NCBI RefSeq assembly: GCF_044324785.1
Contig: NZ_CP172127.1
Source of the DNA: Escherichia coli
Lineage (GTDB): Bacteria > Pseudomonadota > Gammaproteobacteria > Enterobacterales > Enterobacteriaceae
Strand: one strand, 5' to 3'
Length of the DNA: 64,000 nt
The notes under the pieces are model-generated. The model searched no databases, was not told where the DNA came from, and saw nothing but the letters and a program-made list of their open reading frames with translations. Position 1 is the stretch's first letter; each line of letters begins with the position of its first letter. The position numbers and the translations under genes were made by a program. Of the stretch, positions 11,000 to 11,944 are shown piece after piece.

Positions 11000-11944
11000 A
11001 TGATGCAGGATTTGCGTCTGATATTAATCATTGTTGGCGCGATCGCCATAATCGCTTTACTGGTACATGGTTTCTGGACCAGCCGTAAAGAACGATCTTC
11101 TATGTTCCGCGATCGGCCATTAAAACGAATGAAGTCAAAACGTGACGACGATTCTTATGACGAGGATGTCGAAGATGATGAGGGCGTTGGTGAGGTTCGT
11201 GTTCACCGCGTGAATCATGCCCCGGCTAACGCCCAGGAGCATGAGGCTGCTCGTCCGTCGCCGCAACACCAGTACCAACCGCCTTATGCGTCTGCGCAGC
11301 CGCGTCAACCGCAGCCGGTGCAGCAACCCGTGCAGCAGCCTGCCTATCAGCCGCAGCCTGAACAGCCGTTGCAGCAGCCAGTTTCGCCACAGGTCGCGTC
11401 AGCGCCGCAGCCAGTGCATTCAGCGCCGCAACCGGCACAACAGGCTTTCCAGCCTGCAGAACCCGTAGCGGCACCACAGCCTGAGCCTATAGCGGAACCG
11501 GCTCCAGTTATGGATAAACCGAAGCGCAAAGAAGCGGTGATTATCATGAACGTCGCGGCGCATCACGGTAGCGAGCTAAACGGTGAACTGCTTCTTAACA
11601 GCATTCAACAAGCGGGCTTCATTTTTGGCGATATGAATATTTACCATCGTCATCTTAGCCCGGATGGCAGCGGCCCGGCGTTATTCAGCCTGGCTAATAT
11701 GGTGAAACCGGGAACCTTTGATCCTGAAATGAAGGATTTCACTACTCCGGGTGTCACTATCTTTATGCAGGTACCGTCTTACGGTGACGAGCTGCAGAAC
11801 TTCAAGCTGATGCTGCAATCTGCGCAGCATATTGCCGATGAAGTGGGCGGTGTAGTTCTTGACGATCAGCGCCGTATGATGACTCCGCAGAAATTGCGCG
11901 AGTACCAGGACATCATCCGCGAAGTCAAAGACGCCAACGCCTGA
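11000..11944 (+). CDS. zipA: cell division protein ZipA (FtsZ membrane anchor)
   Basis: N-terminal TM helix [26 protein letters not shown], long P/Q-rich linker, C-terminal FtsZ-binding domain; start placed at tandem ATGs 11000/11003 rather than the upstream ATG at 10949. Confidence 0.9.

Follow-up and report, generated by a model that had tools for sequence, protein, structure and literature searches.

The zipA gene in the window, by which we mean the whole 64,000-nucleotide stretch of Escherichia coli DNA analysed here, encodes a 314-residue form of the cell-division protein ZipA that differs from the 332-residue form of strain N3 by a single in-frame loss of 54 bp within the Pro/Gln-rich (P/Q) linker. 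We consider it very likely that this linker is a disordered tether whose DNA, rich in short in-phase repeats, undergoes slippage-type insertions and deletions that are tolerated, and that the window carries one such allele. The components are already known: the gene is the known zipA, the region is the known P/Q tether, and the 314-aa allele has already been deposited.

ZipA and its Pro/Gln-rich linker

The open reading frame at 11000-11944 starts with MMQDL (ATGATGCAG) at position 11000 and its stop codon ends at 11944, in agreement with the RefSeq zipA annotation of homologous loci. A first-pass annotation of this DNA had given a length of 314 aa from the MMQDL start and had quoted a linker peptide; the reading frame agrees with that length, and the peptide is found as written in the + strand translation. 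The window gene was matched by 5,425 of 5,426 complete E. coli genomes, and the matched sequence is annotated as zipA. Pfam ZipA_C (PF04354) was located on the window protein, covering aa 180-303 with a score of 157 bits (cutoff 23; E=2.8e-46), and PDB chains 1F46, 1F47 and 1F7W align to aa 171/175-314 with E ~1e-90. The order cysZ-zipA-ligA is the same as annotated in E. coli N3, K-12, 99_0288 and O157:H7. Judged by these matches, the window gene is ZipA, the FtsZ membrane anchor of gammaproteobacteria; binding of the FtsZ C-terminal peptide and a role in division would be expected from its globular domain, which is 100% identical to that of K-12 ZipA. A scan for promoters and terminators around zipA returned nothing informative. 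The gene, its domains and its neighbours are located as follows.

10009-10770, - strand: cysZ, upstream neighbour (ORF and annotation in homologous loci)
11000-11944, + strand: zipA coding sequence, cell-division protein ZipA (ORF, 314 aa plus stop; 945 bp)
11000-11083, + strand: N-terminal membrane anchor, aa 1-28 (AlphaFold helix aa 2-28, K-12 domain map)
11084-11254, + strand: charged domain, aa 29-85 (K-12 domain map, PMC6904479)
11255-11512, + strand: P/Q linker, 86 aa, aa 86-171 (composition, disorder, allele alignments)
11510-11941, + strand: C-terminal globular FtsZ-binding domain, aa 171-314 (PDB alignments, Pfam, pLDDT)
12015-14030, + strand: ligA, downstream neighbour (ORF, homologous-locus annotation, Pfam ligase domains)

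The published map of K-12 ZipA places the transmembrane helix at residues 7-28, the charged domain at 29-85, the PQ domain at 86-185 and the globular domain at 186-328 (PMC6904479). The anchor sequence of the window protein is identical to that of K-12, including its transmembrane helix at aa 7-28, and in an AlphaFold model based on 40 homologues the window protein has a confident helix at aa 2-28 (pLDDT 84-95), as predicted for the single N-terminal transmembrane helix of ZipA (bitopic, N-out). The charged domain shows no difference among five aligned alleles, and rare indels of 1-3 aa were seen there in other alleles. The globular domain is likewise invariant among the five and is modelled confidently over aa 179-313 (pLDDT above 90). 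Between these parts, aa 31-170 are modelled with no secondary structure (no DSSP elements) and with pLDDT of 44-63. Pro or Gln accounts for 47 of the 86 linker residues (25 P and 22 Q, with a further 13 A), and none of the linker columns is conserved across 40 ZipA homologues, the consensus being 'x' throughout. The P/Q region is thus predicted from the model to be an intrinsically disordered tether joining the anchor and charged domain to the FtsZ-binding domain. A passage of PMC6904479, citing Ohashi et al. 2002, describes the PQ domain as an unstructured tether, and the same earlier work is cited there for K-12 ZipA being extended and flexible in solution; PMC6904479 itself argues for a more compact state of ZipA in SMALPs.

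The DNA that encodes this linker stands out from the rest of the window. At 63.9%, the GC content of 11200-11520, an interval that takes in the end of the charged domain and the P/Q linker, exceeds the window average of 49.1%, and CAGCC and GCAGC occur in it 10 and 9 times (22 and 13 times the window density). It contains 44 repeated 7-mer pairs, where the median of the other 321-nt windows is 6, and within the window only two tRNA clusters exceed it in repetitiveness. Shuffles that kept the same codons gave a mean of 18.7 such pairs; since only 0.7% of them reached 44, the linker DNA is repetitive beyond what its amino-acid and codon composition accounts for. The first-pass description of this DNA as low-complexity, with cagcc/gcagc repeats, therefore holds for motif enrichment and 7-mer pairs and does not extend to a tandem array: Tandem Repeats Finder, run over 10900-12000 with a minimum score of 30, reported none, and a repeat search found direct repeats that were only short or imperfect (60-71%). 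A reading of the region as a 'repeat array' was dropped, as there was no Tandem Repeats Finder match at score 30. Short direct repeats in phase with one another are scattered through the linker DNA, which is not a tandem repeat. Its sole tandem feature is a pair of imperfect 12-nt units, located below.

The first-pass annotation had also pointed to dense antisense shadow ORFs across 11135-11547 and had attributed them to the repeat. Such ORFs exist, and they stem from GC-rich codon composition rather than from the repeats. The minus-strand ORFs lie at 11135-11326, 11226-11477, 11347-11547 and 11420-11566, and an out-of-frame + strand ORF lies at 11217-11468. A stop-free run of 83 codons is expected at about 11% per start at 64% GC, against 1.6% at 49% GC; because the higher GC makes such runs likelier, we read the antisense ORFs as an effect of composition and not as a product of the repeats.

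11135-11566, - strand: four overlapping antisense ORFs of 48-83 codons, not genes (64% GC, P/Q/A codons)

The 54-bp deletion and the 314-aa allele

In a global alignment, the window coding sequence equals the 999-nt allele of N3 minus nt 311-364 (54 bp), with no other mismatch. The missing 54 bp comprise 18 codons, VQQPPEAQVPPQHAPRPA, that are present in the N3, O157 and K-12 alleles. They are absent directly 3' of the retained copy of a 12-nt imperfect direct repeat, and the exact ambiguity at the junction is the dinucleotide 'CG' at 11310-11311.

11300-11311, + strand: deletion junction, retained copy CCGCGTCAACCG of the 12-nt imperfect direct repeat (DNA alignment)
11315-11338, + strand: two tandem 12-nt units, CCGGTGCAGCAA and CCCGTGCAGCAG (PVQQ twice), of which K-12 has one (alignment)

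All complete-genome matches aligned to the window zipA in two pieces. Among the five aligned alleles, every difference, in length or in sequence, falls within the linker. The coding sequence and protein measure 999 bp and 332 aa in N3, O157:H7 and the other top matches, 987 bp and 328 aa in K-12, 945 bp and 314 aa in the window, and 903 bp and 300 aa in strain 99_0288. The ST131 allele is also of 332 aa. The earlier suggestion that the linker here may differ in length from that of reference alleles was thus correct. The ZipA of E. albertii, with 331 aa, and that of E. marmotae, with 330 aa, both keep the deleted segment, so the state found in the window is a derived deletion.

Probes of 81 nt and 46 nt spanning the window junction found it in 0 of 5,426 complete RefSeq E. 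coli genomes. This absence, and the GC-rich and repetitive nature of the zipA linker region, are what one would expect if the short linker were a sequencing or assembly artefact produced by collapse in a low-complexity region. The exact 314-aa protein, however, is deposited as ZipA of Escherichia coli (EEU9146809.1 and others; UniParc UPI000BE13E26) and occurs on 291 public contigs, the longest of 5.68 Mb, and in 433 index blocks. Two independent sources, the NCBI assembly GCA_050521405.1 and a scaffold of the ENA metagenome ERZ28602767, carry the same coding sequence base for base. Moreover, the linker repeats measure only 7-12 nt, much shorter than reads, and the 54-bp deletion is in frame. 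Because identical coding sequences come from independent assemblies and the protein is found on 291 contigs, we regard an artefact as excluded for practical purposes. The 314-aa allele marks a lineage missing from the complete-genome set, and the best identities of the window to any complete genome, 98.6% for 1-25 kb and 97.6% for 42-64 kb, are in line with such a lineage.

The same identities bear on how the allele entered this genome. The window zipA coding sequence is that of N3 bar the deletion, yet the surrounding 25 kb is at most 98.6% identical to complete genomes, 42-64 kb reaches 97.6% at best, and N3 is not among the 15 best complete-genome matches listed. An N3-identical zipA in more divergent surroundings suggests that the locus may be mosaic, with the allele imported by recombination from another lineage instead of having arisen in the window's own. 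In other strains, a 69-nt linker deletion occurs on both one-copy and two-copy PVQQ backgrounds (in alleles of 305 and 309 aa), which needs either recurrence or recombination, and recombination may thus have spread alleles. We consider import of the window allele unlikely; it would concern only the route into this genome and not the origin of the allele, and so does not compete with the deletion mechanism discussed below.

Length alleles and junction repeats in Escherichia and Shigella

A homology search retrieved 135 Escherichia/Shigella ZipA proteins, retrieval requiring a match to the C-terminal domain, with lengths from 292 to 375 aa; the list of 120 proteins given by this search is a subset, ranked by score, of 2,257 matches. 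The first-pass annotation had proposed aligning zipA alleles across E. coli and Shigella, and with this range their lengths and sequences are not all identical. Alignment of the 135 proteins to the 332-aa form showed about 22 different deletions, all in frame and each removing 4 to 37 aa, nearly all within residues 88-154. Duplications, at least 5 in number and adding 17 to 43 aa, also lay within residues 88-154. A few changes of 1-6 aa lay in the charged domain and at residues 181-186. Every linker indel in the 135 aligned proteins comprises a whole number of codons, and the coding sequence is intact in 15 of 15 alleles examined as DNA. Four deletion alleles are given below in 332-aa numbering, with numbers of contigs that, like the genome counts that follow, mirror the sampling of clones and not population frequency.

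309-aa allele: deletion of 99-121; 827 contigs
308-aa allele: deletion of 103-126; 371 contigs
300-aa allele: deletion of 123-154; 484 contigs
295-aa allele, S. flexneri: deletion of 106-142; at least 1000 contigs

In a systematic sample of 40 complete genomes, the coding sequence measured 999 bp in 17, 987 bp in 22 and 903 bp in one. By junction probes, 22-24 complete genomes carry the junction of the 309-aa allele, 3 that of the 308-aa allele and none that of the window. From the length sample and the junction probes together, two long forms dominate, and the deletion alleles are lineage-restricted minorities.

Short repeated motifs and many length alleles within one species would also be found if the linker were a contingency (phase-variable) locus, at which simple-sequence repeats switch the length or expression of ZipA at high frequency. 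Against this, Tandem Repeats Finder saw no tandem array at score 30, and all the changes observed are in frame. Alleles are fixed across hundreds of contigs per lineage, as for the 295-aa form of S. flexneri, and the 309-aa allele is shared by 22-24 complete genomes; fixation within lineages indicates slow evolutionary turnover and not switching. In addition, zipA is essential in E. coli, so that on/off switching would be lethal. We therefore give phase variation almost no credence.

For 15 alleles, the junctions of the insertions and deletions were located at the DNA level. Events with an exact junction repeat were as follows.

12-nt deletion, K-12 (328 aa): GTGCAGCA (8 nt)
69-nt deletion, 309 aa: GCGCAGCCG (9 nt)
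72-nt deletion, 308 aa: CAGCAGCC (8 nt)
111-nt deletion, 295 aa: CAGCAGCC (8 nt)
96-nt deletion, 300 aa: CGCAGCC (7 nt)
81-nt deletion, 305 aa (allele L011): CGCCGCAACA (10 nt)
81-nt tandem duplication, 355 aa: CGCCGCAACA (10 nt), the reciprocal of the 81-nt deletion
51-nt duplication, 349 aa: CAGCCG (6 nt)

Exact direct repeats of 7-10 nt thus lie at 6 of the 8 deletion junctions studied as DNA, and 2 of 3 duplications have exact junction repeats (6 and 10 nt). At each such deletion, a junction repeat as long as the one observed arose in just 3-7% of cases when an equally long deletion was placed at random in the linker, and the joint probability of at least 6 of 8 deletions at that level is about 3e-6. 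A test of similarity in 24-nt contexts was noisy and non-significant for most events, and the length of the exact junction repeat was used in its place. A second 305-aa allele (L010) appeared to have 0 nt of microhomology and is better read as a K-12-like allele, with one copy of PVQQ, that has undergone the 69-nt GCGCAGCCG deletion. The 302-aa allele and parts of the 354-aa allele, which is a compound duplication, are without clean junction repeats, as is the window allele.

The repeats are also phased. The 999-nt allele contains 37 exact direct-repeat pairs of at least 7 nt with a spacing under 200, of which 36 fall in nt 260-530, the linker. The spacing is in frame for 33 of the 37 pairs, compared with an expectation of one third (p ~2e-12); this phasing arises because the same peptide motifs are written with the same codons, and it implies that slippage would nearly always keep the frame. 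Across the proteins of non-standard length, in-frame repeat pairs of at least 6 nt predict the junction peptides of 66 of 101. The other 35 are unexplained by exact prediction of the junction peptide, and many of them are amino-acid variants of explained deletions. The window allele is among these 35, because its junction is displaced by 5 nt from the exact repeat.

For the window, the relevant repeat is the imperfect pair CCGCGTCAACCG and CCGCGTCCAGCG, with 10/12 identity, an exact run of 7 nt (CCGCGTC) and a spacing of 54. The exact microhomology at the junction is 2 nt, which 39.5% of random placements reach, and the similarity of its 24-nt contexts is 15/24, which 21% of placements reach; this junction is statistically not distinguishable from random placement. 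The copy retained is entirely the upstream one, as expected if a nascent strand carrying copy 1 re-paired at copy 2. The first-pass view of the DNA as prone to slippage is thus supported for the locus as a whole, given the 7-10 nt repeats at six of eight deletions, and for the window's own junction, where the 7-nt exact run within the imperfect repeat speaks for it, it is plausible rather than demonstrated.

We propose a mechanism in which the peptide motifs QP, QQP, PQP and PVQQ, recurring in the same codons, supply direct repeats of 6-11 nt, nearly all in one phase. Mispairing of these repeats, by replication slippage or another short-homology, RecA-independent rearrangement, would then delete or duplicate whole codons, and a tether acting as a flexible spacer would tolerate the change in length, allowing the variants to persist in lineages. 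In the window, the 54-bp deletion would have arisen on an N3-like 332-aa haplotype between CCGCGTCAACCG and CCGCGTCCAGCG, giving the 314-aa ZipA.

Tolerance, constraint and related systems

Length changes in the linker are probably tolerated because the tether works as a flexible spacer, and the 314-aa allele most probably affects the phenotype little, if at all, which would make it nearly neutral. Among 122 complete-looking representatives of the family, the number of residues before the FtsZ-binding domain runs from 137 to 281 (10th-90th percentile) with a median of 185; the window protein has 170. With assumed worm-like-chain parameters, persistence length included, the estimated rms reach is 6.5 nm for the window tether and 7.0-7.2 nm for those of K-12 and the 332-aa alleles.

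A different account holds that linker length is under selection, with shorter or longer tethers being adaptive in particular lineages, for instance through the spacing of membrane and Z-ring, FtsZ bundling or sensitivity to phage division inhibitors such as lambda Kil, which acts through ZipA according to a statement in PMC3961180. Deletions are recurrent in the same interval of aa 88-154, and some are fixed in successful lineages (295 aa in S. flexneri; 309 aa in a group including an O25:H4 strain). Of the in-frame repeat pairs, the 10 whose use would delete residues past 154 account for no natural allele, against 11 of 23 for pairs inside 87-154 (p=0.007), although the wide spacing of many of the 10 in itself lowers slippage; the unused pairs hint at some constraint. 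On the other side, mutational opportunity, meaning the position and phase of the repeats, predicts the range of indels well; deletions and duplications both occur; tether reach changes little by the estimate, ~0.5-0.7 nm rms; and among ZipA homologues the length before the domain varies two-fold and is tolerated. Adaptive tuning by lineage appears unlikely to us. A stronger version, in which the length series from 295 to 375 aa is non-neutral and tunes by lineage the distance from membrane to Z-ring or the sensitivity to ZipA-dependent phage division inhibitors, and in which the C-terminal third of the P/Q domain (residues ~155-185), never seen deleted, would have a function so far unrecognised, we regard as very unlikely. 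The reading that we favour remains a tolerant tether whose length follows the repeats in its DNA.

Variation in ZipA linker length of this kind is what a disordered linker of low complexity would be expected to show. We know of no experimental mapping of the tolerance of ZipA to linker length. The literature searched contained no report of natural zipA linker length polymorphism or of experiments truncating the linker or altering its length; one zipA match, in a Salmonella indel paper, was an entry in the reference list only. E. coli and Shigella offer a ready-made series of tether lengths, with P/Q domains from ~67 to over 125 residues, and this allelic series could be used to probe what length of tether ZipA requires and whether there is anything special about residues 155-185. 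In annotating genomes, differences in ZipA length of up to ~40 aa either way should be taken as genuine alleles and not as errors, and antisense ORFs over the zipA linker should not be called genes. For the window itself the significance is small: its deletion is real but ordinary, one of many in-frame variants.

Compared with K-12 ZipA (b2412, NP_416907.1, 328 aa; P/Q domain aa 86-185), the window has the same gene in the same synteny, identical anchor, charged and FtsZ-binding domains, and an equally Pro/Gln-rich linker. It is without the 18 codons VQQPPEAQVPPQHAPRPA and has a second PVQQ unit, making it a net 14 aa shorter, and it carries P152S and V182I-type substitutions (332-aa numbering). 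The N3 allele (WP_097439438.1, 332 aa) is identical in DNA over the coding sequence except for the 54 bp that it keeps; 43 contigs carry it, whereas the 314-aa allele is on 291. The 309-, 308-, 300- and 295-aa alleles are in-frame losses of 23-37 codons from the same part of the P/Q domain as the window deletion. Their endpoints differ from it, and their junctions lie on clean exact repeats of 7-9 nt, whereas that of the window lies on an imperfect repeat.

Beyond zipA, linker swap and length studies were reportedly carried out on FtsZ by Gardner et al. and by Buske & Levin, both in 2013. A passage of PMC7811198 carries a statement citing such studies. The disordered C-terminal linker of FtsZ is poorly conserved in sequence and exchangeable between species; FtsZ is a different protein from ZipA, and its linker, like that of ZipA, is a spacer in the same connection between the membrane and the Z-ring.

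Repeat-bordered deletion and duplication in the ZipA linker

Two zipA alleles from separate strains differ in length at the same site in the Pro/Gln-rich linker (P/Q domain). They were found at the following retrieved loci:

L011:201-1118, 305-aa zipA allele
L014:201-1268, 355-aa zipA allele

In the 305-aa allele, the 10-nt repeat CGCCGCAACA borders an 81-nt deletion; in the 355-aa allele, this repeat borders a tandem duplication of 81 nt that is the exact reciprocal of the deletion. Together, this deletion and duplication at CGCCGCAACA are the textbook product pair of slippage or unequal exchange.

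Deletions were essentially absent in natural zipA alleles from one part of the P/Q domain:

11462-11512, C-terminal third of the P/Q domain (aa ~155-171 here, corresponding to aa 155-185 of the 328-aa K-12 and 332-aa N3/O157 forms)

Ten in-frame direct repeat pairs of at least 7 nt in the 999-nt (332-aa) allele could remove part of this third. None of the 10 is used in natural alleles, compared with 11 of the 23 pairs within aa 87-154 (Fisher p=0.007). The missing deletions could reflect functional constraint on the C-terminal third, or simply less slippage at long spacing. A full-length ZipA entry (PDB 9iue, 328 aa, 18 chains) is available, and may offer a view of the extent of linker order within an assembly.

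The region between zipA and ligA

Shortly 3' of the zipA stop and before ligA, positions 11973-11998 hold a GC-rich hairpin with a run of T residues behind it (CCCCCGCTTGTCGGGGGTTTTT). This element looks like an intrinsic terminator ahead of ligA; it was missing from the output of a simple terminator scan.

tRNA genes and genomic setting

Three tRNA features were located in the window:

16713-17110, minus strand, cluster of Lys(TTT) and three Val(TAC)
19809-19999, plus strand, cluster of two Ala(GGC)
61160-61234, minus strand, tRNA-Arg(CCT)

Within the window, only the two clusters exceed the zipA linker in internal repetitiveness, and their layout near gltX is ordinary for E. coli. The tRNA-Arg(CCT) gene is a common integration site. 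Separately, GC content falls to 40–42% at 50000-56000, which lies inside the 42-64 kb stretch, where matches are annotated as evgS, emrY, dsdX, dsdA and oxc.

Among 5,426 complete RefSeq E. coli genomes, the top identity was 98.6% for positions 1-25000 and 97.6% for 42000-64000, and the source lineage of the window appears to have no representative in this set. Content and gene order in both segments are those of the ordinary E. coli core, with pdeA, ptsI, ligA, gltX and nupC in the first and evgS, emrY, dsdXA and oxc in the second.
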